Notes under the pieces: model-generated | The model's database searches: none | What the model was told of the DNA's origin: nothing | The model's input: only the letters and a program-made list of their open reading frames with translations | DNA from: Candidatus Korarchaeota archaeon NZ13-K | Lineage (GTDB): Archaea; Korarchaeota; Korarchaeia; Korarchaeales; Korarchaeaceae | Assembly (NCBI GenBank): GCA_003344655.1 | Contig: MAIU01000017.1 | Location: 1 to 20,544 of the forward strand | DNA length: 20,544 bases | Reading direction: 5' to 3' | Translations under genes and position numbers: made by a program | Shown: positions 1 through 14,564 of the stretch, piece by piece | Position numbering within the stretch: the first letter of the stretch is position 1 | Layout of the letters: each line of letters begins with the position of its first letter

Positions 1-537
1 CTCGATAGGCTGCTCGGGGTCGGAAATCCCGAGGCCCCCCTGTTCGGGAGGGCCTTCTCTGAGATAACTTTGGAGAGGCTCCCTGCCGAGAGGTCCGAGG
101 AGTTCCTAAGGGCCGGGTTCGAGCAGGTGGGCCTCAGGGTCCCTGAGGAGGAGATATCGCAGGCCGTTTCCAGGCTCGATGGTGTGATAGGCTGGCTCAC
201 ATTCTACGGTTACCTCAGGAGCAGAGGAGGGATTGAGGCCCTGGAGAGGGCCGTGGAGGAGGGATCCAGGATCGCTGCCAGCGAGTTCAATCACTTCCTC
301 AGCAACAGGCAGCTGGCCAGGAGGAGGTACGTCGAGGTCCTGAGGACGTTGACCAGGCCCTCCACCTGGACCGAGGTGAAGAGGGGCCTCAGGCTCATAG
401 CCAACGTGAGCGACAAGCAGGTGTCAAGCTACCTGAAGGAGCTGATTCACTATGGTTTCGTGGAGAAGAAAGGTGATCTCTACCAGATAGCCGATCCACT
501 CTTAGCTGAGGCTGTGAGGAGGGGTTATGTTTACTGA
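1..537 (+). CDS. C-terminal part of an archaeal ATPase (Arch_ATPase, PF01637-like) family protein; 5' end lies outside the window
   Basis: Frame 1 is open from base 1 into the listed ORF (70..537), so the gene is 5'-truncated. The 'LDGVIGWLTFYGYL' segment resembles the conserved G(I/V)PGWL(T/N)xFG motif near the C-terminus of Arch_ATPase proteins, followed by a winged-helix-like tail. Recognition is from memory of the family, not a search. Confidence 0.5.
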   Translation, partial: LDRLLGVGNPEAPLFGRAFSEITLERLPAERSEEFLRAGFEQVGLRVPEEEISQAVSRLDGVIGWLTFYGYLRSRGGIEALERAVEEGSRIAASEFNHFLSNRQLARRRYVEVLRTLTRPSTWTEVKRGLRLIANVSDKQVSSYLKELIHYGFVEKKGDLYQIADPLLAEAVRRGYVY

Positions 538-683
538 TCGCCCGATGCCTCTCATCTCCAGGTTGCTTGGAAGCGGGAGCGGCATATCGGTGGCGCTTGC
601 GTAACCTCGGACTGTAGCGGGAGCATCCCCCCAAAGCTTCAGCTCCTGGCAGGTGCTGCGCACCCTGAGCGTTAGCCGAACCA

Positions 684-2162
684 TTGAGGGTCATCTTTTT
701 AGATGCGTCCAGCATCGCCTGGGGGATGAGGCTCATAGGCAGGGTGGCGGACGACTCCGGTGAGGTCTCAGCCTCCGTCATACTCCTCAAGGGCCTCGAG
801 AGGGAGGTGACCTCGGAGAGCCTGGTGCTCATAGAGAACGCTGGCTCCGGGAGCAGGGTCTTGGGCATACTGAGGAGGGGGAGGGGGAGGAACGAGTTCC
901 TCAGGAGATCAGGCTATAGGCCGGAGGTGGCCTATCTGAGGCACGGAGGGGAGCCATCGAGCTCAAGGGAGGTCTACTCCTTTGATATCATCGTGCTCGG
1001 GTGCCTTGAGGGAGGAAAGCTGAGGGCCAACAGGATGATAATAGCCCCGGGCTCCCCCGTCTACCTGTTCGATGAGGAGAACCCGCTGGAGCTCATAGCA
1101 GGCTCTGCCAAGAGGTTGGCTTGGATGAGAGCCCACCTGGAGGGGAGGAATGACTGGAGGGTCCCTGCTGATGCCCAGTACATTCCATATCACGTTGGCG
1201 TCTTCGGATCCACGGGGACGGGGAAGTCCTGGTTCACGAGGCACGTGCTCATACCCTTCTACATCGACAACGGCTACAGGGTGATCGTGCTGGACTGGAG
1301 CGGCGAGGACTACGCTCCCTACCTCCCGAGCGTCAGGCTCTCCGAGCTGGCCTTGGACGAGCTCTCGATACTCCAGTACCTCTCGGGGCTCACGGATGAC
1401 TTCGCGGGGAACAACAGCTTGAGGAACGCCTTCGATGATTACGTCTCCGGCTGGGTCGAGAGGGTCAGGGGGAGGGATGAGGTCGAGCTCTACGAGGACC
1501 TGAGGGAGTTCGTTCAGAGGGCGGTCAGGGGGATCAGGAGGGATGACTGGAGGGAGTCGGCGGAGAGGGCCCTCAGCAGGGTCTTCAGGAGGCTCTCCCC
1601 CGGGGACCTGGCCCCCCTGATGGGAACCAGGCCGGTGAGCGAGATCGTTGAGTCCGGGGAGAGGCTGATCGCGGTTGACATGTCCGGCTTCTCCAACGAG
1701 ATCAAGCTAGGCTTCTTCCTGACCCTGGCCAGCGAGCTCAAGAGGAGGATGGTAGCCGGGCAGGATCTCGGGATAGCCCTCGTCATAGACGAGGCCCCCC
1801 AGTACTGCCCTCACAGGCCAGAGGGGATTCAGGCCCAGGTCACCGAGGAGATAAAGAACCTGGCGGCCCTGGGCAGGAAGCACGATCTGAACCTCACGCT
1901 GGTGGCTCAGGGGGTGGCGGGTGAGATAGGGATAAATGCCGCCATAAGGAGGAACCTCAACACGAACTTCTACGGGAGGCTCCATCCCCTCGACGCGGCA
2001 GGTGAGGGGAGCGCCAGGGACTGGCTGGGTCCCTACGGGATAACCCCGGAGTACCTGCTGACCCTCGAGGACGGGAGGTTCTACTTCACGGGCGCCATGA
2101 ACCCCTCGCCGGTCCCCCTTCTCATAACCTTCGAGGTGGAGGGGCTTGGAGGAACGGGATGA
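684..2162 (+). CDS. HerA-like (DUF87/FtsK-HerA superfamily) hexameric ATPase/helicase
   Basis: Walker A 'GVFGSTGTGKS'. Walker B-like 'ALVIDEAPQY' (HerA hhhhDEAH-type). The N-terminal ~130 aa are beta-rich with 'VLGIL...IIVLGCLEG' as in a HAS-barrel. Length 492 aa is typical of HerA. It overlaps the downstream NurA-like gene by 17 nt. Confidence 0.75.
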   Translation: MRVIFLDASSIAWGMRLIGRVADDSGEVSASVILLKGLEREVTSESLVLIENAGSGSRVLGILRRGRGRNEFLRRSGYRPEVAYLRHGGEPSSSREVYSFDIIVLGCLEGGKLRANRMIIAPGSPVYLFDEENPLELIAGSAKRLAWMRAHLEGRNDWRVPADAQYIPYHVGVFGSTGTGKSWFTRHVLIPFYIDNGYRVIVLDWSGEDYAPYLPSVRLSELALDELSILQYLSGLTDDFAGNNSLRNAFDDYVSGWVERVRGRDEVELYEDLREFVQRAVRGIRRDDWRESAERALSRVFRRLSPGDLAPLMGTRPVSEIVESGERLIAVDMSGFSNEIKLGFFLTLASELKRRMVAGQDLGIALVIDEAPQYCPHRPEGIQAQVTEEIKNLAALGRKHDLNLTLVAQGVAGEIGINAAIRRNLNTNFYGRLHPLDAAGEGSARDWLGPYGITPEYLLTLEDGRFYFTGAMNPSPVPLLITFEVEGLGGTG

Positions 2163-3321
2163 GCCGGACTGGGTCAAGCTCCCTCACGCCCTCCAGTCGA
2201 TCTTCTTCGAGAGGGTTGAGGAGGAGGTCTCCTCCCTGATTGGGGAGATAGAGAGGCTTGAGAGATGCATCGAACTCATCAGGGACAGGCTATCCGGTCT
2301 CTTCGAGCCCTACGATGAGAGCGACAGTGTTCTGAGGATAGGGGCCGTTGACGGCTCCAGGTCCCCGGAGATGAGCGAGAGGCTGGGGATAAGGTACGGC
2401 GTCTTCACGACGGGGGCCGTGGTGCTGGAGGGCGGGAGGAGGGTCCGTGAGAGCTATTACGCTGACTCCTTCAGGAGGGAGCAAGCCGCGTCCAGGGAGG
2501 TCAGCAGCTACCTCCTCGATCTCCGCGTGAGCTATGCCGAGAGGAAGCTCGCCCTTGAGTTGCTGGATGATGTGGACTTCCTATTCATAGACGGCAGCTT
2601 CTACGGCTTCGTCTACCCGGTCCTGAGGATGAGGAAGAGGGGGGCGTTCGGGGAGATGGAGGAGTCCCTCTTCAGGGAGATGTGGGAGGTCACTGGGAGA
2701 CTTGTGGAGAGCGGGAAGGTGGCGGGAGTCGTCAAGAGGAGCCACACCAGGGCCATAGGTGGATTCATCGCCACGAAGCTCTTCGATCACCTCCAGGAGC
2801 TCGGGGATCTGGTGGGGGTGATAGACAAGCTCATACTCTCGGCCCTGATGCCCCCGCGCTCTATCTTCAGGTACGAGAGCCTGATAGGAGAGGAGAACGT
2901 CACGGTCTACACGGAGGCGGCCCGCGCCTTCCTCAGGCATGGGAAGTCAGAGGACCTCCTCGAGTTCGCCAGGAAGAAGGCCTATGAGCCTTTCGATAGG
3001 CTGGGGCTCGATCCCGAGGGATTCAGGAGGATGAGGAGGGTTCAGGTCAAGTCCCATCCGGGAGCCCCTGTTTGCGAGATCGAGCACCCCTCCGCGTTCG
3101 AGAGGGTGATCGAGGTGATAAGATCCAGGGGCATGTTCAGCGACGTAACTGGGCTTCCCCTGGCCTTGGACGTCGTGGACTCGCTGGTTGACCTGGGTTC
3201 GAGGTTCACGGAGGAGTACGTGAGCGAGATCGAGGCCAGACTGCTGGAGAGGATGGGAAGGGAAAGACCGAAGCTCATAAGGTGGTTCTTCCATCTCCTA
3301 AACCCTCAGAAGGTCTTCTGA
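2146..3321 (+). CDS. NurA-like 5'-3' nuclease
   Basis: 'RIGAVDGS' (NurA motif I with the catalytic Asp) and a second 'LFIDGSFYG' DGS motif. ~390 aa, translationally coupled to the HerA-like gene. The predicted start overlaps the HerA stop. Confidence 0.7.
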   Translation: MEERDEPDWVKLPHALQSIFFERVEEEVSSLIGEIERLERCIELIRDRLSGLFEPYDESDSVLRIGAVDGSRSPEMSERLGIRYGVFTTGAVVLEGGRRVRESYYADSFRREQAASREVSSYLLDLRVSYAERKLALELLDDVDFLFIDGSFYGFVYPVLRMRKRGAFGEMEESLFREMWEVTGRLVESGKVAGVVKRSHTRAIGGFIATKLFDHLQELGDLVGVIDKLILSALMPPRSIFRYESLIGEENVTVYTEAARAFLRHGKSEDLLEFARKKAYEPFDRLGLDPEGFRRMRRVQVKSHPGAPVCEIEHPSAFERVIEVIRSRGMFSDVTGLPLALDVVDSLVDLGSRFTEEYVSEIEARLLERMGRERPKLIRWFFHLLNPQKVF

Positions 3322-3367
3322 TGAGGAGGGACGGAACGTTTTTCAAATTCCACCCCCTCGAGTCGGG

Positions 3368-4090
3368 ATGCGCGGGAGCGAGTTCTACCCACTTCCCCTC
3401 AGGAACATTCACAGGCTCCTGACGAACCTGGGGCGCGACGCGGATCCGGAGGGCGTGAGGTCCCTGCTCAAGCTCAGGGACAGGAGGAGAGTTGATCAGT
3501 ACGTCAAGACCCTCAGGTGGGTGGCCAGCAGGGTGGAGGACGCTGGCTCCCTGGACGCCTTCATGGAGTCGATGGTCAGGGCTCTGATGAGGGAGTTCTG
3601 GCTGGAGGAGGCCTTCAAGGAGCTGATGGAGAGGGCCATCCCCCTCTCACCTTCCTCCCTCTCCGCCCTGCTGAGGGCGAGGGGGTTGAGCCTGACGGAG
3701 AGCGAGGCCAGGGCGATAATATCATGGATGAGGGAGGCAGGGGCCCTGAGGGAGAGGAAGGTGCCCGTTCTGACCCTATCCCTTGAGGAGAGGGTGCTAG
3801 AGGACGTGAGGAACAGGGGGACAGTCACATACGCGAGCCTCAGGAGGAGCTACGGTGATAACGCCAAGCTGGCGGTATTCTCCCTCTGGAGGAGGGGCCT
3901 TATAAGCGTCCCCTCCCTTGAGAGGTACAGGGACCTGCTGGAGGGGGTGGAGGATCCGGATAGGATACCGGGGAAGGTGGAGGGCAGGATATTCTCCACA
4001 TGGCAGGACAGGACGAGCGGAGAGATGTACAGCGAGCTTGTGATCCCCCAGAGGGAGAGGATATCGGCAAGGTGGCGGCTGGATGCATGA
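3368..4090 (+). CDS. hypothetical protein with two winged-helix-like segments (possible DNA-binding/adaptor component of the cassette)
   Basis: 240-aa ORF with genome-typical codon usage, preceded by GGAGGGA 40 nt upstream. The segments 'LSALLRARGLSLTESEARAIISWMREAGAL' and 'VTYASLRRSYGDNAKLAVFSLWRRGLISV' look like HTH/wH units. Its stop overlaps the next gene's start by 8 nt. No family recognised. Confidence 0.45.
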   Translation: MRGSEFYPLPLRNIHRLLTNLGRDADPEGVRSLLKLRDRRRVDQYVKTLRWVASRVEDAGSLDAFMESMVRALMREFWLEEAFKELMERAIPLSPSSLSALLRARGLSLTESEARAIISWMREAGALRERKVPVLTLSLEERVLEDVRNRGTVTYASLRRSYGDNAKLAVFSLWRRGLISVPSLERYRDLLEGVEDPDRIPGKVEGRIFSTWQDRTSGEMYSELVIPQRERISARWRLDA

Positions 4091-5861
4091 TAGGGATTTG
4101 GAGGGGCTTTACAACAATTACAGGGGCCTGAGACCAACAACTATAAGGTCTATACTCGACTGCTGGGCCGATAGGAGGCCGGTTGAGGAGAGCCTCGAGG
4201 TGATAAGGAGGGTCTTCCCCGGATCCCAGATCCTGGAGTCGACTGCCAGGAGCGTGATGAGGTACCTTCAGGACAGGGATTGGAGGGGTTGCATAGTGAA
4301 CATAATCGGCGACTACGGCTCCGGGAAGACCCAGATGGGGTTCATCCTGCTCAGGATGATAAGGGAGAGGGGGGAGGCACGCGTCAGGATGATCACGGCC
4401 GACCCCCTGACCGAGCTCAGGTCCGAGATCCTAGAGGATGGGGATGAGAGGCCCCTGGTGGTGATAGTGGATGAGGTTGATCTTCTCATCGGCGATATGG
4501 AAAGGGGGAAGCGCGATAGGGTTGAGGAGCTGGCCGATCTGGCAAGGATGATGACGGAGGGGAGCTTCAGTAACCCGGCCAGGGGCTCAGTTATCCTCCT
4601 TCTCTCCAAGAAGGCTCATAGCTCCCTGAAAATGGACAGGGCGCTGAGGAACAGGCTTATCGATAGGGCGAAGGAGTTCTCACTCTCGATGAGTGAGACG
4701 GACAGGGAGAGGGTGAGCCTAGAGGCTGTGAGGAGGATAATAGCCCTCAGGATGGCCTACAGTGAGGAGGATCGCCTGAGGATATTCCGATCCCTCGGGC
4801 TGATATACCCTTTCATGGAGAAGCTGGCCCTCGACCTCTGCTCCATGCATGAGATAGGGGGGATAGTCAAGAACCTGGTCACGGCCCTGGACGACATACT
4901 GAGCGAGCTCACCGACCCGCGGAGCCTTGGTGAGGTTGAGAAGGGGAGGTTCTTCGAGGAGGTGCTCAAGCGCTTCTTCAGCGAGGTATTCAGGAGGGTC
5001 CACTTCAGGGTGACTGTGGGGGATGAGAGGAGGGACTACGTCGCGATCTTCTCGGAGGAGCCCCTGAGCGTCCCCGGAGCCAGAACCGATGCCCATTACG
5101 ACATCAGAACGTACGATGCCGATAGGGGGCTCATCGGAAGCCTCCTGGTGAACCAGGTCGGCTTGGAGATCAAGTACGGGGACTATTGGAAGGAAAACAG
5201 GGATCAGCTCCTGAGGGTGATGGAGAGATACCCCCTGCTCCTGATCTGCGTGACCGAGATGGATGAGGACGAGCTTGCCGATCTGAGGAATCAGATGAGG
5301 GCCGGCGGGAGGGCCTTCGAGATAATGGGCCTGAGCCCCAAGGTCCTGGGGGTGACTCTCACGCTGACGCCGGAGGGGGCTCTGAGGTTCCTGAGGAACT
5401 GGGGAACCTTCGAGAGGGATTTGGAGGAGATCCTGAGCATACTGACGCTGCAGTCGGTGAGGGTAAAGGATAGGGAGGTGAGCGACCAGGATATACTGGC
5501 CCAGGCCTCCTCGGCAATCGTCAGCTCGCTGATGAGGGAGCTCAGGAGGGCCAGGAAGATGGTCAGGACATCGACGCTCTCTGACCTGATCAGGAGGAGC
5601 CTTGAGGGCGTTTACGCCAGGTACGGGAGGGCGGCCCCCGACCTGCCCGAGATCCTCGTGGATAGGATACTCAGGCTTCTGGAGAGGGAGGGCCTGGGGA
5701 GGCTGAGCGAGACCGGTAAGTCCTTCAGCCTGAGCGCGGAATCTAAGAGGAACCTAGAGGAGCTCTCCCTCGATGAGGGAAGGAGGAGGGACATGGAGAG
5801 GGTGGTCTCAGGGATCCTGCTGAGGATGCAGGAGCAGGCCCCCGGACTTGATGCCCTCTGA
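4083..5861 (+). CDS. AAA+/P-loop NTPase with C-terminal putative PD-(D/E)xK nuclease-like region
   Basis: Walker A 'IIGDYGSGKTQ', Walker B 'LVVIVDEVDLL' and sensor-1-like 'VILLLSKK' in the first ~200 aa. The C-terminal region carries 'HYDIRTYDAD-x15-GLEIKYG' (D ... ExK spacing typical of the restriction-endonuclease fold, reminiscent of the DUF234 domain that accompanies Arch_ATPases). 592 aa. Confidence 0.6.
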   Translation: MHDRDLEGLYNNYRGLRPTTIRSILDCWADRRPVEESLEVIRRVFPGSQILESTARSVMRYLQDRDWRGCIVNIIGDYGSGKTQMGFILLRMIRERGEARVRMITADPLTELRSEILEDGDERPLVVIVDEVDLLIGDMERGKRDRVEELADLARMMTEGSFSNPARGSVILLLSKKAHSSLKMDRALRNRLIDRAKEFSLSMSETDRERVSLEAVRRIIALRMAYSEEDRLRIFRSLGLIYPFMEKLALDLCSMHEIGGIVKNLVTALDDILSELTDPRSLGEVEKGRFFEEVLKRFFSEVFRRVHFRVTVGDERRDYVAIFSEEPLSVPGARTDAHYDIRTYDADRGLIGSLLVNQVGLEIKYGDYWKENRDQLLRVMERYPLLLICVTEMDEDELADLRNQMRAGGRAFEIMGLSPKVLGVTLTLTPEGALRFLRNWGTFERDLEEILSILTLQSVRVKDREVSDQDILAQASSAIVSSLMRELRRARKMVRTSTLSDLIRRSLEGVYARYGRAAPDLPEILVDRILRLLEREGLGRLSETGKSFSLSAESKRNLEELSLDEGRRRDMERVVSGILLRMQEQAPGLDAL

Positions 5862-5881: not shown

Positions 5882-7189
5882 ATGCCGGGCAGAAGGAGCG
5901 TCCTCATCTCCTGCACCCTAGCGTCCTTCCTGACGCCCTTCTCATCCTCCTCCATCACGGTCCTCCTCCCACAGCTATCCTCCCACTTCGGGGTCAGCCT
6001 CGCCGCATCCAACTGGTCGGCCGGGGCCTACCTCATACCCCTTGCCGCATTCATAGTGCCACTCGGGAGGATAGCTGACTGGAAGGGTAGGAGCACCATC
6101 TTCATGATCGGATTGATCTCCTTCTCAGCTTCCTCCCTACTGGCCGCGCTCTCACCTGATTTCACATCCTTCCTCATCTTCAGGTTCCTCCAGGGAATCA
6201 GCTCCTCCATGATCTCGGCCACAGCAGTAGCTGTCCTCTCCGAGGCCTTCCCAAGGGAGGAGAGGGGAAGGGCTGTTGGGGTGAACACCGCCTCTGTCTA
6301 CGTTGGGCTGAGCCTCGGTCCCCTCATGGGGGGCCTGATAGCGGACCTCCTCTCCTGGACTTGGGTCCTCATCCTGAGCTCCCTCGCATCCCTTTTAGCC
6401 CTGCTTCCATCCAGAAATCTCCCGAAGTCCAGGGAATTAAGCTCCCCTCCCAGTCCCGCGCTGATCTCTCTCCACGCCATCTCGATGATCCTCCTGGCGT
6501 ATGGCATCTCCTCCCCGGGTGGGTCCGGTATAGCTATCTCATCCATCGGGGCCGCGCTGCTGGCCGCATGGCTCTCCAGGGAGATGCTCGGGGATGGGAT
6601 CTTGGGTCCTCAGCTCCTCAGGAACGGGGCTTACATGGCATCCTCCACAGCCGCTCTGCTAAACTACAGCGCCACATACGCGATCTCGATAGTGCTCAGC
6701 CTGCACCTCCAGAGGGTGCTTGGCCTACCCGCTAGCGTGGCGGGGATCATTCTGACGGCGCAGCCCATAGTTCAGGCTTTCCTATCACCCCTGGCCGGTT
6801 ACCTCGCTGACAGGATTTCCCCCCACAGGGTGGCCTCGCTCGGGATGATCCTGGTGGCCCTTGGAGTTGTCAGCCTCCTGCCCCTGACGCCATCCAGGCA
6901 GCCAGCGTCACTGCTCCCCTCGCTCCTCTTACTGGGCGTGGGCTTCGCCCTCTTCGCCTCCCCGAACACGGTAGCCGCTTTGAACGCCTCCCCCATCCCT
7001 CTCTACGGTTCAGCCACCGCCTTCCTCGGATCCATGAGGTTCCTGGGCCAGTCCCTGAGCACCTCGATCCTGATGATCCTCATGGCCGGGATGGAGCTCT
7101 CAAGGGCGATGAACGCGGCCCTGATGATCTACGTGGTGATAAGCGCAGCAGGGGCGGTCTTGTCAGCCGTAGCCAGGTACAAAAGGTGA
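5882..7189 (+). CDS. MFS transporter (drug/H+ antiporter-like)
   Basis: Highly hydrophobic protein with ~12 predicted TM segments. MFS motif A-like 'PLGRIADWKGRS' lies between TM2 and TM3. 435 aa. Confidence 0.8.
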   Translation: MPGRRSVLISCTLASFLTPFSSSSITVLLPQLSSHFGVSLAASNWSAGAYLIPLAAFIVPLGRIADWKGRSTIFMIGLISFSASSLLAALSPDFTSFLIFRFLQGISSSMISATAVAVLSEAFPREERGRAVGVNTASVYVGLSLGPLMGGLIADLLSWTWVLILSSLASLLALLPSRNLPKSRELSSPPSPALISLHAISMILLAYGISSPGGSGIAISSIGAALLAAWLSREMLGDGILGPQLLRNGAYMASSTAALLNYSATYAISIVLSLHLQRVLGLPASVAGIILTAQPIVQAFLSPLAGYLADRISPHRVASLGMILVALGVVSLLPLTPSRQPASLLPSLLLLGVGFALFASPNTVAALNASPIPLYGSATAFLGSMRFLGQSLSTSILMILMAGMELSRAMNAALMIYVVISAAGAVLSAVARYKR

Positions 7190-7196
7190 GTCAGTT

Positions 7197-8234
7197 TCAC
7201 TGCTTGAGGAGAGCTATCCCCCCGGGGTTCCTCACCCTGAGGGCCAGCGTCTCCCAGAGCCTGAAGAGGTGCATGCCGTCCTCGGGGCCTATGTAGTCCA
7301 GCTCCGTGTCGGCCCCTATGACTAGATCTAGGACCTGGGGGTTCGATGAGATGAGCAGCGCCTCGTCCTCCTCCAGCGCCGGAACGGCCACCACATCGCC
7401 CACCAGGGCCTTAAGCCTATGCAGCTCCATCACCCCAGTGCGCTCGTGCACCGCAACGAGCTTGGCGTACCTCGAGGGGCTGACCAGGAGCACGTATGGC
7501 TGGGGGAACCCATCCCCAATCATCCCGCTCAGGGCGCCGGCCACCTCGGAAACGGCCGATCCCGGCTCGTCCCATGACGAGATCCTCCCCAACCTCCCTG
7601 CCCTCTCCTTCATCGCCCTGATGAACTCCCTTTCCTCCTCCATCGAGAGCCTCGCGGCAGCCGCGAGGGCGGGGGAGGCGTCGAGGGCGCCGGAGACCTT
7701 GGCGCTGTCCAGAGAGGCCTGGCTTATCGCGAACACCTGGCTCAGCTCCCTCAGCTGGATAACGTACCTCCTCCTGGGCTTGAGGTCCTCGGAGGAGAGA
7801 TCCTCCACGGGCACGGCATCAACTCCCCTTCCGACGCGGGTCACCGGGAGGTGCTTCCTCAGAACCCTGATGCCATCCGCATACCTCCTCACCTCGGCCC
7901 TCAGGTCCGACCACTCCTCCCGCTGGCCGGGAGGATCCTGCCCAGATATTCCCGTGAGCCTAGCGACTTCCTCAGCACCCGATGCGAGTTCCTCAACCTG
8001 CTCCTGATCCAAGGACTTCAGCATAGCCAGGAATTCCCCTACGTGCGTCTTCTCCTCCTTGGCTATGTCCTCGAATACCTTCTTCGCTGCCTGATCCTCC
8101 GTGCAACTGGCCAGCTGCAGGTAGAGGTTTATCGCGTCGAGCTCGGCTATTATGCTCAGGCGGAGCGCCTGGGCCAGCTCCTCCCTGCTTAGCTTCCTCC
8201 CAACGGGGAGCTCAATGGGGTTCTTGCTGAGCAT
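7197..8234 (-). CDS. ferritin-like protein / encapsulin (linocin M18-type) shell protein fusion
   Basis: The N-terminal ~100 aa have ferritin-like di-iron signatures ('IIAELDAINLY', 'EEKTHVGEF', ExxH). The remaining ~245 aa have encapsulin-like length and composition. The total of 345 aa matches the known Flp-encapsulin fusions of Thermococcales virus-like particles (recalled from memory). Confidence 0.55.
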   Translation of the reverse strand: MLSKNPIELPVGRKLSREELAQALRLSIIAELDAINLYLQLASCTEDQAAKKVFEDIAKEEKTHVGEFLAMLKSLDQEQVEELASGAEEVARLTGISGQDPPGQREEWSDLRAEVRRYADGIRVLRKHLPVTRVGRGVDAVPVEDLSSEDLKPRRRYVIQLRELSQVFAISQASLDSAKVSGALDASPALAAAARLSMEEEREFIRAMKERAGRLGRISSWDEPGSAVSEVAGALSGMIGDGFPQPYVLLVSPSRYAKLVAVHERTGVMELHRLKALVGDVVAVPALEEDEALLISSNPQVLDLVIGADTELDYIGPEDGMHLFRLWETLALRVRNPGGIALLKQ

Positions 8235-8250
8235 GAGTCAAGCTGATGGG

Positions 8251-8264
8251 AAATAATATAAATC
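8251..8264 (-). promoter_or_regulatory. TATA box (minus-strand reading TTTATATTATTT) ~23 nt upstream of the encapsulin ATG; leaderless promoter
   Basis: An AT-rich 14-mer in GC-rich context, centred ~23-26 nt upstream of the start codon at 8234. Confidence 0.45.
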
Positions 8265-8309
8265 TTCGGCCGTGACCCGATGACATCAATGGATGCTCAC
8301 GATCGCGGG

Positions 8310-8840
8310 CTACTCCGCCCCATCCCTCCCGGGCCTCACCAGCCTCTCCTCCCTGTCATACTCGATGAGACCGGAGCAGACTCCCCAGTAAATGAGGCAG
8401 TTGAAGGCCTCCTCAAGATCTCCCTGGTGACAGAATCCTCCACTTGAAGCTATTATTCTCATAACCTCCTCCTTCCTGAGGCCTCCCCTCTCCTTCAGCC
8501 TCCTCATCACCTCGCTGAAGACCTCCAGATGCATCAGCTTGCTCCTGATGTAACTACCCCTCTCCGAATGACTCAGCCCCAGGAAATCGATTCCAGATTC
8601 GGTTAGCTTGGCATCACCCTCATCCACCGAGATCAGACCAATCATCTCCAGGAACTCCAGAAGTGGGAGTATCTCATCAGCATGCATGCCCGTCTCCTCG
8701 GATATCCTCGCCACATCAGCCTCCCCGCCCAGATCCCTGAGGAGCCTCAGGAGGCCCAGCACCCTGGAGTAGGACACGGGTAACTCCGACATGGGTCCTT
8801 CACTGAAGGCCCCTCCCAAAAAATAAACTTTGTCCTCCAA
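8310..8840 (-). CDS. small protein resembling the C-terminal AAA-associated domain of NitT/TauT ABC ATPases (stand-alone); alternative start at 8792
   Basis: Immediately follows the ABC ATPase gene on the same strand, 2 nt after its stop. 160-176 aa with wH-like 'LGLLRLLRDLGGEADVARISEETGMHADEILPLLEFLEMIGLI'. Family assignment is tentative. Confidence 0.45.
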   Translation of the reverse strand: MEDKVYFLGGAFSEGPMSELPVSYSRVLGLLRLLRDLGGEADVARISEETGMHADEILPLLEFLEMIGLISVDEGDAKLTESGIDFLGLSHSERGSYIRSKLMHLEVFSEVMRRLKERGGLRKEEVMRIIASSGGFCHQGDLEEAFNCLIYWGVCSGLIEYDREERLVRPGRDGAE

Positions 8841-8842
8841 AC

Positions 8843-9580
8843 TCAGGAGAGGAGACTGTATATCTCATCAACCTTCTCGTAGATGCCCTCATCCCTCCTG
8901 TTCCTGGGCCTCGGTAGGTCTATGTTCACGACCCTCAGAACCACGGAGGGTCTTCTGGATAGGACGACAACCCTATCGGACATTAAAACGGCCTCCTCTA
9001 TGTTGTGCGTCACGAGAATTATGGACTTCAGGCTCGGGGAGCTCTTCCAGAGCTCCAGTATCTCGTGCCTCAGGGTCTCGGCCGTGAGCTCGTCAAGGGA
9101 GGAGAAGGGCTCGTCCATCAGGAGGAGGCTCGGTTCAACGGCCAGGGCCCTGGCTATCCCGACTCTCTGTCTCATCCCACCGGATAGCTCCTTTGGGAGG
9201 AACTCCTCGAACTCCGAGAGTCCGACGAGGCTTAGCCACTTCCTAGCTATCTCCCTCGAGTTCCTCACTCCCCTGGCTCTCAATGGGAGCTCCACCTGCT
9301 CCAACACCTTGAGCCAAGGCACTAAGGCGAAGCTCTGGAAGATCATGGATATCCTTGGATCAGGGGAATCTATCTCCCTCCCATAGAAGGTTATCCTCCC
9401 GGAGCTGGGCCTCTCAATGCCCGCTATCATCCTCAGGATGGTCGATTTCCCGCAGCCACTCGGTCCCACGATAGAGACTAACTCCCCCTCCCTCAGCGAG
9501 AAGCTCACCTCCCTTATAACCTCCAGCTCCTCTCCATCCGAGGGGAAGCGCTTTGAGACCCTATCCAGCTCCAGCATCAT
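8843..9580 (-). CDS. ABC transporter ATP-binding protein, nitrate/sulfonate/taurine (NitT/TauT) family
   Basis: Walker A 'GPSGCGKST', ABC signature 'LSGGMRQRVGIARAL', Walker B 'LLLMDEPFSSLD', H-loop 'ILVTHN'. ATGA overlap with the upstream permease. Confidence 0.85.
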   Translation of the reverse strand: MMLELDRVSKRFPSDGEELEVIREVSFSLREGELVSIVGPSGCGKSTILRMIAGIERPSSGRITFYGREIDSPDPRISMIFQSFALVPWLKVLEQVELPLRARGVRNSREIARKWLSLVGLSEFEEFLPKELSGGMRQRVGIARALAVEPSLLLMDEPFSSLDELTAETLRHEILELWKSSPSLKSIILVTHNIEEAVLMSDRVVVLSRRPSVVLRVVNIDLPRPRNRRDEGIYEKVDEIYSLLS

Positions 9581-11118
9581 TCCACCCTGAATTTGGTCGA
9601 GTAATCGTACAGGAACCTCCAGAGGGTCCTGTTAATGACTATTATGATCGCGGTCAGGACGGCCGTTACGAATATGACTGACGATACGCTTCCCCTCTCC
9701 CACGCAGCGATGCTGAGGAGGGTCCCCAGGCCGTACTGAGATTCATCTCTCGGGAAGACCTCATCCCCCACCTTTATATATTCTGCGACTATGAGGGCAT
9801 TCCAAGCGCCGCCCCAAGCCGTTATCAGACCCGTCACGATCGAGGGGAACATGCCCGGGAGCACGATCTTCCTGAGGTAGAGGAATCCCCTCACTAGGAA
9901 GATCCTCCTCATCTCCTCTAGATCTGACGGTATCGACCTCAAACCGGCGAGGGAGTTGAACATTACGTAGAACTGAGCCCCGAAGAGGGCTAGCATGATA
10001 GCGGCAATCTCAAAACCGATCCCACCCATGGGAAGCACTATGTACCTCACCAGGAAGGGCCAGAGAACGGGAACGGGGAAGGATGCCGCTATCTCGAGAA
10101 CCAACATGAGCTCGTTCCAATGCTTCCCCCTGCCTAACAGGAGGGAGACTGGAAGGGTCCATGTGAGGGAGATCAGGAGCACCGTAAGGACCCTCCTCAT
10201 CGAGTTCAGGGATGCAATCAGGATGAGACCCGGCTCGCTAACGTACTCGGATGAGAGCGACTCCGGTGTCACCGAGAGCGCCGTCCTCACCACCGCGTAA
10301 ACTGTGAATGCCATCAGGAGGAGAGCGGAGATCTTTCCCAGAATTCTGGCCCTTCTCTCAACGAGATTTCCTAATTTCATCAGATGATCCCTCAACCGAA
10401 GCCTTGAGATGCGCCTGATGGTGCGGAAGAAAGCCCTGTGGATGAAGTGGGGGATCCTCACCCAGTGCAGCTCGAGGGGCCTCACCCTCCTCCTCTCCCC
10501 GGCCGAGTACTCGTACTTGAAGTTCTCGCTCCACTCGACGAGGGGCCTCCATATGAAGAGGTACGTGAAGGAGACGAGGAACATCGTCACCAGCACGGAT
10601 ATGACTGCGAGATCAATCCTTGGAGGGGTTTCCATCAGTGACAGGGCGAGAAGGCTCCCCAGGCCCGGGAGCGATATCTCGGCGCTGCCCACCGATATCA
10701 CCTCGGACGCGTAGAGGAAGAACCAGCCTCCAGCCCAGGACATGGCCGAGTTGTAGATCAGCTTCTCCATGGTGGCCGGTATAAGTATCCTTCTGATGTA
10801 AAGAGTCCCCCTGATGCCGTAGATGCGCGTCATCTCCTCCAGATCCCTTGGTATCATCTTCACGGCTTCGTAAACGCCGAAGGTCATGTTCCACACTTGA
10901 GAGGTGAATATGAGGAAGATAGAGGAGATCTCCGCCCCTATGCGCGAGCCGAAGAGGTTCATGAAGAAGATTATGACGACTGGGAAGAAGCCCAGTATTG
11001 GCACGCTCTGCAGCACGTCCAAGACCGGTATCACCAGGTGCTCAGCCTTCTCATTTTTCCCAGCGATGATCCCCACGGAGAGGGAGAATATGAGGGATAA
11101 GATGTACGCGAGGATCAT
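9577..11118 (-). CDS. ABC transporter permease, fused duplicated BPD-transport (TauC/SsuC-like) domains
   Basis: 513 aa with two ~250-aa hydrophobic halves, each with an EAA-like loop region ('SIPSDLEEMRRIFLVRG', 'PRDLEEMTRIYGIRG'). Confidence 0.8.
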   Translation of the reverse strand: MILAYILSLIFSLSVGIIAGKNEKAEHLVIPVLDVLQSVPILGFFPVVIIFFMNLFGSRIGAEISSIFLIFTSQVWNMTFGVYEAVKMIPRDLEEMTRIYGIRGTLYIRRILIPATMEKLIYNSAMSWAGGWFFLYASEVISVGSAEISLPGLGSLLALSLMETPPRIDLAVISVLVTMFLVSFTYLFIWRPLVEWSENFKYEYSAGERRRVRPLELHWVRIPHFIHRAFFRTIRRISRLRLRDHLMKLGNLVERRARILGKISALLLMAFTVYAVVRTALSVTPESLSSEYVSEPGLILIASLNSMRRVLTVLLISLTWTLPVSLLLGRGKHWNELMLVLEIAASFPVPVLWPFLVRYIVLPMGGIGFEIAAIMLALFGAQFYVMFNSLAGLRSIPSDLEEMRRIFLVRGFLYLRKIVLPGMFPSIVTGLITAWGGAWNALIVAEYIKVGDEVFPRDESQYGLGTLLSIAAWERGSVSSVIFVTAVLTAIIIVINRTLWRFLYDYSTKFRVE

Positions 11119-12730: not shown

Positions 12731-13659
12731 ATCCTCTCCCTCGTGAAGTAGAGGAAAACGTCATCCAAACTGGGCTCCTTCATCTTCATGTACCTCACCT
12801 TCGCCCTGAACTTCGATATCCTGTCTAAGATGACTGGGATGAGCTCCTCTCCCCTGTTCAGATGCATCCTGATCCCGCCTTGATCCGACATCACCCTGGA
12901 CACTCCATCTATCTCGCTCAGCTGGTTCACCATCTCCTCCCTAGGGGGAACGTCGAGCTGTATCTCGAGTATATCTCCACCAGGTATGCTGTCCTTGAGC
13001 TCCGAGGGCGTGCCGGAGGACACCAATCTCCCCTCATACATTATTCCGATCTTATCCGATACAATGTCGGCCTCGTTCGTGTCATTGGTTGCTAGCATCA
13101 CGGTCGAACCGGAGTCCCTCAGCTCCCTAATCATGTCCCATATCACGTGCTTCCCCAGCACGTCGACCTGGGCCGTTGGTTCATCGAATATGGCGAATTT
13201 AGGTCTCTGGACGAATATCTTGGCCACTTCAACCCTCTTCCTGTTCCCCCCACTGAGTTGATAGAAGAACTTGTTCCTTTGATCCCATATCTCGAGCCTC
13301 TCCATGACTTCCTTGACCCTCTCCTTCAGCTCCTGCCCCCTGAGGCCGCATATCCTTCCGTGCCACTCCACTATCTCTATGGGCTTGTCCACCCAAGTGG
13401 CCTTGGGCTCCTGGAAAGCTATGCCGAGCAGGCCCCTCACCTTATCCGGCTCCCTCACCACATCATACCCCCCGATTCTGGCCGTCCCGGCGGTCGGCTT
13501 TATGACTGTCGCCAGCATCAGTATCGTAGTCGTCTTCCCGGCTCCATTCGGGCCAAGCAGACCGAATATCTCCCCTTCATCTATGCTCAGGCTCAACCCC
13601 TTGACGGCTGGATTCCTCCCGTAGTACTTGGTTATGTTCAGAACCTCGACGAATGCCAT
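12727..13659 (-). CDS. ABC transporter ATP-binding protein (ABC-2/CcmA-like exporter ATPase)
   Basis: Walker A 'GPNGAGKTT', signature 'LSGGNRKRVEVAKIF', Walker B 'FAIFDEPTAQVD'. Extra C-terminal ~80-aa domain. Confidence 0.85.
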   Translation of the reverse strand: MAFVEVLNITKYYGRNPAVKGLSLSIDEGEIFGLLGPNGAGKTTTILMLATVIKPTAGTARIGGYDVVREPDKVRGLLGIAFQEPKATWVDKPIEIVEWHGRICGLRGQELKERVKEVMERLEIWDQRNKFFYQLSGGNRKRVEVAKIFVQRPKFAIFDEPTAQVDVLGKHVIWDMIRELRDSGSTVMLATNDTNEADIVSDKIGIMYEGRLVSSGTPSELKDSIPGGDILEIQLDVPPREEMVNQLSEIDGVSRVMSDQGGIRMHLNRGEELIPVILDRISKFRAKVRYMKMKEPSLDDVFLYFTRERI

Positions 13660-13682
13660 CGCGGGAGCGAATCACTGTACCC

Positions 13683-13697
13683 TAAAAAATTTATCCG
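13683..13697 (-). promoter_or_regulatory. TATA box (minus strand GGATAAATTTTTTAG) ~23 nt upstream of the ABC-2 ATPase start; preceded by a T-tract that may terminate the Mpg transcript
   Basis: AT-rich element in the 83-bp gap between the Mpg stop (13743) and the ABC ATPase start (13659). Confidence 0.4.
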
Positions 13698-13742
13698 AAA
13701 AAGCCGCCGGAGCCCTCGGCACACAGCAGCGTGTGCTGGAAC

Positions 13743-14303
13743 TCAGCCCACGATGAACCTATCTATGCAGGAGATCCTGAAGTTGAGGGGCTCGGGGAGG
13801 TCCTCCCTCACCCCCACCCTGGGGGATCTCGAGATGCAATCCCGACCCACGCTCACGCCAACCGCGAGCCGAAGCTCCTTATCGCAACGGCAAAGGAAGG
13901 CCTTATGGTGACGCTTGTCCACCCTGAGGTACCTGGTGACACGCCCCGGGCCCCATATGGGATCATCAACGGGCTTCAAGGTTTCCGGATCGACGGGGAC
14001 TATGCCCCTTATGAGGACGGCTCCCGCCTCCCCATCCTCGTGAGCCACCACGTTGAGGAGCCACTCCCTGTGAACCCCGTAAACGAGGGCCGTGCAGGGC
14101 TCCCCATACATGGTCCTCGCGAGATCCCCTCCCTTCCTGGCCCTGGACGCGGGATCCTCGGGGCCGAAGTAGGGTTCGACCTCAGTGACCATGCCCGCTA
14201 CCCACTCGGCCCCGTTCAGGACGACCTTGCCGAGCAGCTCGACGGCCACCAGATCGGGCCTCCTGCGGAAGAAGTCACGCTCCAGTACGGCAGGCTTCGA
14301 CAT
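13743..14303 (-). CDS. mpg: DNA-3-methyladenine glycosylase (Mpg/AAG family)
   Basis: 'LERDFFRRRPDLVAVELLGKVV...AGMVTEVEPYFGPEDPASRARKG...RTMYGEPCTALVYGVHREWLLNVV...GAVLIRG' matches the conserved Mpg/AAG core (EAY-like 'VEPY', 'LNVV', 'VLIRG'). ATG at 14303 is preferred over the listed GTG at 14315. Confidence 0.75.
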   Translation of the reverse strand: MSKPAVLERDFFRRRPDLVAVELLGKVVLNGAEWVAGMVTEVEPYFGPEDPASRARKGGDLARTMYGEPCTALVYGVHREWLLNVVAHEDGEAGAVLIRGIVPVDPETLKPVDDPIWGPGRVTRYLRVDKRHHKAFLCRCDKELRLAVGVSVGRDCISRSPRVGVREDLPEPLNFRISCIDRFIVG

Positions 14304-14373
14304 TGCACCGCTCACCCGGAGCTTTCGTTAGGCACCAGTGAGGTGCCCTTGATGGTGATCCACGGCCACAAGC

Positions 14374-14387
14374 ATAAAAAAAGCTGA
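14374..14387 (-). terminator. oligo-T tract (minus strand AGCTTTTTTTATGC) directly after the stop of the 56-aa wH gene
   Basis: A run of 7 T on the coding strand within 10 nt of the stop codon. Archaeal terminators are oligo-T tracts. Confidence 0.35.
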
Positions 14388-14393
14388 GGAGGT

Positions 14394-14564
14394 TCACTTG
14401 AGCTTGTACTTCCCGTCGCCCGTCTTCTCTATCTTCCCGGCCTTCTCAAGCCTGGTCAGCTGGCCCTTCACAACACCCTCCTTCGCCCCCGTGGCCTTCA
14501 CGAGCTCACTCAGGGACTTCGGACCGGACTTGAGCTGCTCGAGTATCTTGTCCTTCACACCCAT
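14394..14564 (-). CDS. small winged-helix DNA-binding protein (56 aa), absent from the supplied ORF track
   Basis: Hand translation of the minus strand gives MGVKDKILEQLKSGPKSLSELVKATGAKEGVVKGQLTRLEKAGKIEKTGDGKYKLK*. This is a textbook wH pattern (helix-'LSELVK'-turn-recognition helix-'KAGKIEK'-wing 'GDGKYKL'). An AT-rich TATA lies ~40 nt upstream and an oligo-T follows downstream. Confidence 0.5.
   Translation of the reverse strand: MGVKDKILEQLKSGPKSLSELVKATGAKEGVVKGQLTRLEKAGKIEKTGDGKYKLK

Follow-up and report, generated by a model that had tools for sequence, protein, structure and literature searches.

Adjacent herA-nurA and winged-helix/ATPase-nuclease gene pairs in a korarchaeal contig are probably separate units

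A metagenomic contig of 20.9 kb, part of the metagenome-assembled genome (MAG) of Candidatus Korarchaeota archaeon NZ13-K, opens with five co-directional genes: the truncated end of an ATPase gene (g1), a herA-like ATPase gene, a nurA-like nuclease gene, a gene for a protein with tandem winged helices (g4), and a gene for an ATPase carrying a putative nuclease domain (g5). Nearly all of the contig, a stretch of 20,544 nucleotides hereafter called the window, was analysed. The five genes had been interpreted in a first-pass annotation as one cassette, plausibly encoding a self-contained helicase-nuclease machine involved in defence or repair. The region is better described, and probably consists, of three independent units, g1, herA-nurA and g4-g5, which adjoin one another in this branch of Korarchaeum only. 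The herA-nurA pair is a well-conserved further member of the known class of systems with multiple pairs per genome. The g4-g5 pair, rare and uncharacterised, is a variation on the ATPase-nuclease theme; it is the region's more novel component, with a function that is predicted only.

Organisation of the five-gene region

The five genes announced from the sequence are all present, and lie on the same strand (Table 1). The description of the run as tightly spaced or overlapping is accurate in part. Overlaps are limited to herA/nurA (17 nt) and g4/g5 (8 nt), but gaps of 188 and 46 nt separate g1 from herA, and nurA from g4, respectively. Both spacers host an A/T-rich TATA-like element, located 24-27 nt upstream of the start codon of the following gene. 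In archaea, leaderless transcription units usually have this layout. The element preceding herA may thus be the promoter of a leaderless herA-nurA transcript, and that preceding g4 a separate promoter for g4 and g5.

Family A is used below to denote the HerA and NurA proteins of the window and their close relatives. The alignment of family-A HerA was scanned against one genome per GTDB species. In all, 158 relatives were found, and the best 80 loci, identified by L numbers where needed, were analysed, clustering into families the genes found within ~10 kb of herA. These 80 loci span Korarchaeia, Methanodesulfokora, Bathyarchaeia, Nitrososphaeria, Brockarchaeota, Caldarchaeales, Hecatellales and Conexivisphaera. 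Homologs of g1 and g4 accompany herA-nurA in only one of them (L008, from the closest Korarchaeum), and in the additional locus L003. The five-gene arrangement is accordingly confined to the source MAG and, among its relatives, to the two closest, L003 and L008. Conservation of the neighbourhood across archaea, which the first-pass annotation had named as a point to be checked, is contradicted by its absence from the other 79 herA-nurA loci. In turn, g4-g5 have been found in eight other distinct contexts which lack herA-nurA. Where all genes are present, the order is not always uninterrupted. In L003, which among the loci on long contigs is the nearest relative, a nucleotidyltransferase-HEPN (MNT-HEPN) toxin-antitoxin pair (8214-9139) sits exactly between nurA and g4, and a 133-aa open reading frame (ORF) is found between g1 and herA. 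The same locus hosts a second MNT-HEPN pair upstream (1199-2085).

Since the modules occur apart, are split in L003 by an insertion, and carry TATA-like boxes in front of herA and of g4 separately, they are unlikely to form one five-gene unit. According to the opposite view, all five genes would specify a single multi-ATPase/nuclease defence or repair machine, in which HerA-NurA would degrade DNA, and the products of g1, g4 and g5 would have a sensing or accessory effector function. In the window, L003 and L008 the genes do share one direction and lie next to each other, and all five products plausibly act on DNA. Their adjacency in three related genomes could reflect some local functional cooperation, and this weighs against a complete independence of the modules. 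However, the restricted distribution of the arrangement, the toxin-antitoxin insertion, the separate putative promoters and the 188-nt gap between g1 and herA all argue for distinct units, and make a single machine very improbable. A search of the five proteins with PADLOC returned no system, and the PADLOC and NCBIfam scans gave generic HerA or P-loop matches only, which does not support membership in a known defence system. More generally, that ATPase and nuclease genes lie side by side in one MAG says little about whether they form a system.

The first of the three units, g1, is the C-terminus of an Arch_ATPase-family protein, as had been supposed. The fragment in the window ends in a winged helix matching the Pfam model MCM_C (1.2e-7). 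A full-length ortholog (355 aa; phmmer 6e-97 to g1) is found in L003, and matches PF01637 ATPase_2 with 42.1 bits, above the cut-off of 33.2, in addition to AAA_22 and the MCM_C winged helix. Homologs of g1 in L093 and L095 reside elsewhere, away from family-A herA. g1 is an independent, stand-alone gene, and a member of a multi-copy family.

Table 1. Coordinates of genes, domains and sequence elements in the window and in related loci
Locus	Feature	Coordinates	Strand	Remarks
Window	g1, last 178 aa of an Arch_ATPase-type (PF01637) P-loop protein, with a winged helix at the C-terminus	1-537	+	truncated by contig start
Window	putative promoter, TATA-like box TTTTTAGA	696-703	+	~27 nt 5' of herA ATG, within the g1-herA spacer; read from sequence
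Window	herA, family A, HerA/FtsK-superfamily ATPase, 478 aa	726-2162	+	PF01935
Window	nurA, family A, NurA-type RNase-H-like nuclease, 391 aa	2146-3321	+	PF09376
Window	putative promoter, TATA-like box TTTTTCAAATT	3339-3349	+	~24 nt 5' of g4 ATG, within the nurA-g4 spacer; read from sequence
Window	g4, 240 aa, tandem winged-helix domains and highly conserved C-terminal three-stranded beta domain	3368-4090	+	
Window	g5, 592 aa, AAA+ ATPase with PD-(D/E)xK-like domain	4083-5861	+	
Window	g5, N-terminal helical region and ORC/Cdc6-clade AAA+ module	4083-4922		aa 1-280
Window	g5, PD-(D/E)xK-like domain	4932-5342		aa 284-420; E292, D336, E362-x-K364, Q375
Window	g5, C-terminal helical/winged-helix region	5484-5834		aa 468-584
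Window	major facilitator superfamily (MFS) transporter gene	5882-7189	+	PF07690 at 1.2e-48; begins 20 nt 3' of g5
Window	encapsulin shell protein fused to N-terminal ferritin/rubrerythrin-like domain	7197-8234	-	Linocin_M18 2.7e-29, Rubrerythrin 7e-8
Window	compact transporter operon: AAA_assoc_C protein, ABC ATPase, BPD_transp_1 permease	8310-11118	-	
L004	family-B HerA with intein	1-1083		
L006	family-B HerA with intein	1-1082		
L091	family-B HerA with intein	1-1408		
L093	family-B HerA with intein	8450-10942		
L095	family-B HerA with intein	8414-10969		
L044	family-B pair adjoining family-A pair	13303-14499		Bathyarchaeia
L037	family-B pair adjoining family-A pair	8352-9929		Bathyarchaeia
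L092	CRISPR array, at least 17 repeats CTTTCAATTCTTTCCYAGCTGCTTC	4235-5330		~65-nt period; adjoins cas6 and g4-g5 homologs

The family-A HerA and NurA proteins

Translation of herA most likely starts at the ATG at 726, as in the NCBI record (P0020); an alternative TTG at 684 would give a protein of 492 aa. Both members of the pair had been correctly named. HerA matches PF01935 (DUF87/HerA) with 47.6 bits against a cut-off of 23.2, and the same model is matched by all of the 12 family-A HerA members tested, at best with 3.2e-21. The Walker A motif GSTGTGKS (G161-S168) and the Walker B motif DEAPQY (D355/E356) are invariant in the family, which counts more than 200 HerA homologs, 43-85% identical, across TACK archaea. 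NurA matches PF09376 with 33.8 bits (cut-off 21). Five acidic residues, D69 in the AVDGS motif, E132, D149 in the IDGS motif, D342 and D345, do not vary among 78 members of the family, and their motif context suggests that they are equivalent to the catalytic residues of canonical NurA.

The relationship of family-A HerA to characterised proteins is more distant. A profile of the family matches the solved structures 9c1m (7e-12), 8xau (2e-8) and 9x1l, and Sulfolobus HerA (4d2i) at 7e-4; in pairwise comparison, no match to 4d2i was obtained at E <= 1. For the putative HAS-barrel at the N-terminus the indications are mixed: the Pfam HAS-barrel model PF09378 was matched by none of the 12 members, and profile positions 39-135 do align to the N-terminal regions of 9x1l and 9c1m with weak domain E-values. 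In the PADLOC scan the best match of HerA is mad8 of the MADS system (3e-14), and the model of type III coevolved HerA matches (6e-6) at residues 167-208 only, in the Walker A region. No PADLOC match was found for family-A NurA. By these sequence comparisons, family A is a divergent HerA-NurA paralog.

A second HerA-NurA family and known HerA-NurA systems

A different pair, denoted here as family B, is present in Korarchaeum and Bathyarchaeia, with genes in the order nurA-herA. Family B is closer to the canonical proteins. The match of family-B HerA to Sulfolobus HerA extends along the entire core and has an E-value of 2.4e-12, versus the 7e-4 reached by family A, and the PF09376 score of family-B NurA is 61.7 bits, versus 33.8. 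The notion that the pair of the window is a second HerA-NurA paralog is thus well supported. In Korarchaeum the family-B HerA is 830-856 aa long due to an intein (Intein_splicing match), and its gene is overlapped at the 5' side by the family-B nurA, with leuA following at the 3' side. In six Bathyarchaeia loci, family-B nurA-herA are found directly downstream of family-A herA-nurA, so that four helicase/nuclease genes are arranged in tandem. Joint regulation of the paralogous pairs in Bathyarchaeia is a possibility suggested by this arrangement. The Nitrososphaeria contig JARVKA010000008.1 hosts two family-A pairs (L018 and L073), with HerA proteins 54% and 44% identical to that of the window. 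Family A itself has therefore been duplicated in some genomes.

The canonical archaeal system, an end-resection complex, is encoded by herA-mre11-rad50-nurA in Sulfolobus, Pyrococcus and Thermococcus (PDB 4d2i, 9x1l). Family A shares with it the DUF87 core with the Walker A and B motifs, a weakly aligning, barrel-like N-terminal region, a NurA domain with the invariant acidic set, and the organisation in adjacent, translationally coupled genes. In contrast to the canonical system, family A has no mre11 or rad50 nearby, shows a lower NurA Pfam score, reaches Sulfolobus HerA only at E = 7e-4 and with a profile, and coexists with a more canonical pair in the same lineages. A second pair independent of mre11/rad50 is no novelty, since such pairs are already known in Pyrobaculum (PMC3396285) and Deinococcus-Thermus (PMC12977600). 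Pyrobaculum genomes carry at least three nurA-herA pairs, one of which is part of a CRISPR-linked nurA-csm6-herA cluster (PMC3396285, PMC3973734), and a stand-alone herA-nurA operon occurs in Deinococcus-Thermus (PMC12977600). Like these, family A is a bare two-gene unit, independent of mre11/rad50, in genomes hosting several pairs. Unlike the CRISPR-linked pair of Pyrobaculum, it was found beside cas genes or csm6 neither in the window nor in any of the 80 loci.

The bacterial defence systems Sir2-HerA and DUF4297-HerA (PDB 9c1m, 8xau, 8wiv) and MADS provide the best matches of family-A HerA among solved structures and PADLOC models. Family A differs from all of them because its partner is NurA, no other MADS component is present, and the context is of the housekeeping type. 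PADLOC and Pfam scans of all five proteins of the region detected no Sir2, DUF4297 or other mad gene; HerA itself was matched by mad8 and by models of the HerA type only. An assignment to MADS, considered on the basis of the mad8 match, was rejected, as no other mad genes are present, and the MADS paper gives no link to NurA.

Neighbourhood and probable role of the family-A pair

A NurA homolog is encoded directly downstream of HerA, usually by an overlapping gene, in 79 of the 80 loci. In the sole exception, L065 (Brockarchaeota GD2_1), no NurA homolog was detected downstream of 11437, after family-A herA; possible causes are a frameshifted gene, a faulty assembly or genuine loss. HerA (80 loci) and NurA (77) are the only universal families among the clustered neighbours. 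The next commonest occur in at most 22 loci, and reflect lineage-specific housekeeping synteny (THUMP methyltransferase, ABC ATPase, nitroreductase, FKBP, aCPSF1). The two genes probably form one translationally coupled operon, and across TACK archaea they are conserved as a bare pair. In 13 loci, of the Brockarchaeota type, a DHH/DHHA1 phosphoesterase (RecJ/NrnA-like, 317 aa; L059 12670-13623) is encoded on the same strand, immediately 3' of family-A nurA, and may represent a third nuclease partner specific to that lineage.

The pair is not linked to mre11 and rad50, in line with what had been proposed. Neither gene occurs in the window downstream of g1, and no Mre11- or Rad50-like protein is a recurrent neighbour within ~10 kb in the 80 related loci. 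Three neighbour families were scrutinised. Family F4 (317 aa), suspected to be Mre11 or Rad50, corresponds to the DHH/DHHA1 phosphoesterase; family F11 (850 aa), similarly suspected, is by its sequence alone a secreted repeat protein; family F6 (227 aa) is a small calcineurin-type phosphoesterase (Metallophos_3), and not Mre11. Two circumstances temper this conclusion. The NZ13-K contig opens within g1, and its genes further upstream are hence unseen. Moreover, the motif screen for mre11/rad50 run on 99 fetched loci (1.65 Mb) was negative, but crude and lacking a positive control.

By analogy with solved HerA-NurA complexes, a HerA hexamer would pump double-stranded DNA into a NurA dimer, which would degrade the DNA from an end. 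The only evidence for such a complex in family A is indirect, namely the coupling of the two genes in 79 of 80 loci. The mechanism of HerA-NurA has been described (PMC3326311, PMC12977600). The role of the canonical complex is now debated, and may be resection, or DNA destruction or defence (PMC12977600, PMC3326311). The neighbours of the family-A genes are housekeeping genes. No recurrent defence genes or cas families were found among the clustered neighbours of the 80 loci, and no relatives of family-A HerA among the viral contigs of IMG/VR. Because of these observations, and of the strong conservation of the family, a role in chromosomal DNA-end processing or genome maintenance, exerted beside a second and more canonical pair in the same genomes, is favoured, with somewhat better than even chances.

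Alternatively, family-A HerA-NurA may itself be an antiviral or anti-plasmid system, a stand-alone guard of the RecBCD type that shreds linear foreign DNA at its ends, rather than a repair enzyme. The closest solved relatives of family-A HerA by sequence are HerAs of the defence type (9c1m, 8xau), and not Sulfolobus HerA, and its best PADLOC match is mad8. The canonical complex degrades both strands, and has been proposed to act in defence (PMC12977600, PMC3326311), and CRISPR-linked herA-nurA paralogs exist (PMC3396285, PMC3973734). Yet, the matches of HerA to defence models lie largely within the generic ATPase core, and NurA has none in PADLOC. The identity of HerA is high (43-57%) across classes, the synteny is of the housekeeping type and conserved by lineage, and defence neighbours and viral carriers were not found in the surveys just described. 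The antiviral alternative is a serious one, yet held to be less likely, and genome maintenance remains the preferred role. Either way, the occurrence in many TACK archaea of an mre11/rad50-independent HerA-NurA beside a more canonical pair bears on what the archaeal complexes do, be it end resection, wholesale DNA destruction or defence. Families A and B would lend themselves to biochemical comparison as naturally sub-functionalised paralogs.

The g4 and g5 proteins

The presence of two winged-helix-like segments in the g4 product is borne out by an AlphaFold2 (AF2) model (pLDDT 88.5), which predicts tandem winged-helix domains followed by a small beta domain. Structural matches of the model are BrxA (7zge), a BrxA homolog (3bhw), and the recognition domains of FokI and BpuJI, the same set shared with BrxA (PMC12839542). 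No sequence link of g4 to BrxA/DUF1819 or DUF4007 was found.

The AAA+ module of g5, with its Walker A and B motifs and a lid domain, has Orc1/Cdc6 and DnaA as closest structural neighbours, and displays the features of the ORC/Cdc6/DnaA clade. The region following it (aa 284-420) has a predicted alpha-beta-beta-beta-beta-alpha-beta topology, which would fit the PD-(D/E)xK core. E292, D336 and E362 are invariant, and Q375-x-x-x-[Y/F] nearly so, in relatives as distant as 14-24% identity. In distant members T takes the place of K364, and a K further downstream is conserved. Judged by its motifs, this set is a RecB/Cas4-type PD-(D/E)xK signature. As to the original description of g5 as an AAA+ ATPase with a PD-(D/E)xK-like region, the ATPase and the conserved motif are confirmed, and the nuclease fold is predicted from motifs and topology. 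A profile of this domain alone matches no Pfam or PDB nuclease, and fold searches with g5 are dominated by the AAA+ module.

Neither g4 nor g5 belongs to a Pfam or PADLOC family beyond generic P-loop similarity. g5 and its relatives show weak matches only, to the SspC, BrxD, BrxC_BrxD and nSTAND models of PADLOC and Pfam, and do not match PF01637, PF03008, PF09820 or PF08011. g5 is thus set apart from Arch_ATPase (PF01637)-DUF234, AAA-ATPase_like-PDDEXK_9, STAND/Avs and RADAR RdrA proteins, as it lacks their Pfam domains, and is distinctive in how its domains are ordered and in having g4 as an obligate partner.

Distribution and possible function of the g4-g5 dyad

Relatives of the two proteins are very sparse. 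In an index of 5.8 billion proteins the two families have 19 and 23 matches, and an exhaustive profile search of 1.84 billion representatives returned 49 proteins at E <= 0.001. Outside Korarchaeum, identifiable carriers of g4-g5 are MAGs of Thermofilaceae and Thermofilum, and metagenomic archaea. In all of the five distant contexts (L088-L092), the gene immediately upstream of that for the g5 homolog codes for a g4 homolog (E 2.5e-89 to 3.4e-10), and the two overlap or are at most ~70 nt apart; adjacency holds even where g5 identity drops to ~20%. The two genes are therefore co-inherited as a dyad.

In Korarchaeum loci L004 to L007 and L093, g4 and g5 are followed by the MFS gene and are not adjoined by herA-nurA. 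The MFS gene overlaps the end of g5 by 4 nt in L003 (11821-11824), and by 11 nt in L004 (11763-11773) and L006, and is probably co-transcribed with g5 in Korarchaeum. An operon of this kind has no obvious functional rationale. The MFS gene is absent, or located on the opposite strand, in L088-L092, and is not part of the g4-g5 module outside Korarchaeum.

The surroundings of the dyad differ among lineages. In L092, a Thermofilaceae MAG, g4-g5 homologs directly adjoin a CRISPR array, cas6, cmr2/cmr3, csx1 and RAMP genes; in L089 they lie near HD and RAMP genes and a PIN-MazE pair. The dyad has hence been found twice in the neighbourhood of type III CRISPR-Cas loci. In L088 its neighbours are two PIN-MazE pairs and a restriction-modification enzyme of type IIG, in L091 two PIN-VapB pairs lie near it. 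A protein with a metallo-beta-lactamase fold, matching the Anti-Pycsar Apyc1 Pfam model, is encoded in L091 (11396-12010, minus strand), 1.6 kb 3' of the g4-g5 homolog and adjoining the PIN-VapB pairs.

The structural matches bring bacteriophage exclusion (BREX) and Ssp systems into play. BrxA is a bi- or tripartite winged helix-turn-helix protein, with homology to the domains through which FokI and BpuJI bind DNA and to SspB/DUF4007; BrxC and SspC are AAA+ ATPases of the ORC/Cdc6 clade, and PD-(D/E)xK effectors are common in BREX-related systems (PMC12839542). BrxA-BrxC of BREX and SspB(DUF4007)-SspC of Ssp/type 4 BREX thus resemble g4-g5 in the structural matches of g4, the clade of the g5 ATPase module and the PD-(D/E)xK theme. 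However, g4-g5 is a two-gene unit found in few archaeal lineages, the putative nuclease is fused to the ATPase, and PglZ, the PglX methyltransferase, BrxB, BrxL and phosphoadenosine phosphosulfate (PAPS) reductase were not found in the window or in the g4-g5 loci. Because these components are absent, and there is no membership at the sequence level, g4-g5 falls outside BREX/Ssp. By analogy it would work like these systems without belonging to them, the likeness being structural and architectural only.

Following the logic of ATPase-nuclease immune modules, g4, as a tandem winged-helix protein of the BrxA/FokI type, would supply DNA recognition, and g5 would assemble on DNA in an ATP-dependent manner and cut it. 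A tentative reading, with less than even chances, is that g4-g5 is an undescribed two-gene archaeal immune module, in which g4 directs g5 to foreign DNA. It would represent a minimal relative of BrxA-BrxC and SspB-SspC that cuts directly, with no need for PglZ or DNA modification, and that in some Thermofilaceae has been recruited beside type III CRISPR-Cas, possibly as an accessory effector. If g4-g5 were a true immune or CRISPR-accessory module, it would be a new archaeal system, and a minimal model of DNA recognition of the BrxA/BrxC type.

Two observations speak against immunity. In Korarchaeum the order g4-g5-MFS-short-chain dehydrogenase/reductase (SDR)-GcvP-NAD kinase (NADK) is stable across species in which identity is only 47%, next to metabolic genes, and in L090 the dyad lies among purely metabolic genes; both situations are atypical of a mobile defence module. 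The dyad could instead be a chromosomal DNA-transaction factor, with g5 as an ORC-like ATPase-nuclease serving repair, replication restart or regulation, and g4 as a transcription-factor-like partner. The stable chromosomal position and the metabolic surroundings fit this scenario, as do the similarity of the AAA+ module to Orc1/Cdc6 and DnaA, and the result that no g5 relatives were found among viral contigs (IMG/VR). Its extreme sparseness, the proximity in different loci to CRISPR-Cas (L092, L089) and to toxin-antitoxin or restriction-modification genes (L088, L091), and the fusion of a putative nuclease with conserved catalytic residues, typical of effector modules, do not. A housekeeping function of the dyad is on the whole less likely than not, and the immune module, only slightly more probable, stays tentative as well.

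Other genes of the window

The window is not a defence island. Its other genes are transporter and housekeeping genes, and no CRISPR arrays, cas genes, tRNAs, Rfam matches or tandem repeats were found in it. Besides the encapsulin fusion, the region 3' of the five genes encodes ABC transporters, a methylpurine DNA glycosylase, an AsnC-type regulator, TauE, a pyridoxal phosphate (PLP)-dependent enzyme and a P-type ATPase. The encapsulin-ferritin/rubrerythrin fusion is encoded near g4-g5 in all Korarchaeum contigs examined (L003 13144-14181, L004 6053-7108, L006 6024-7103).

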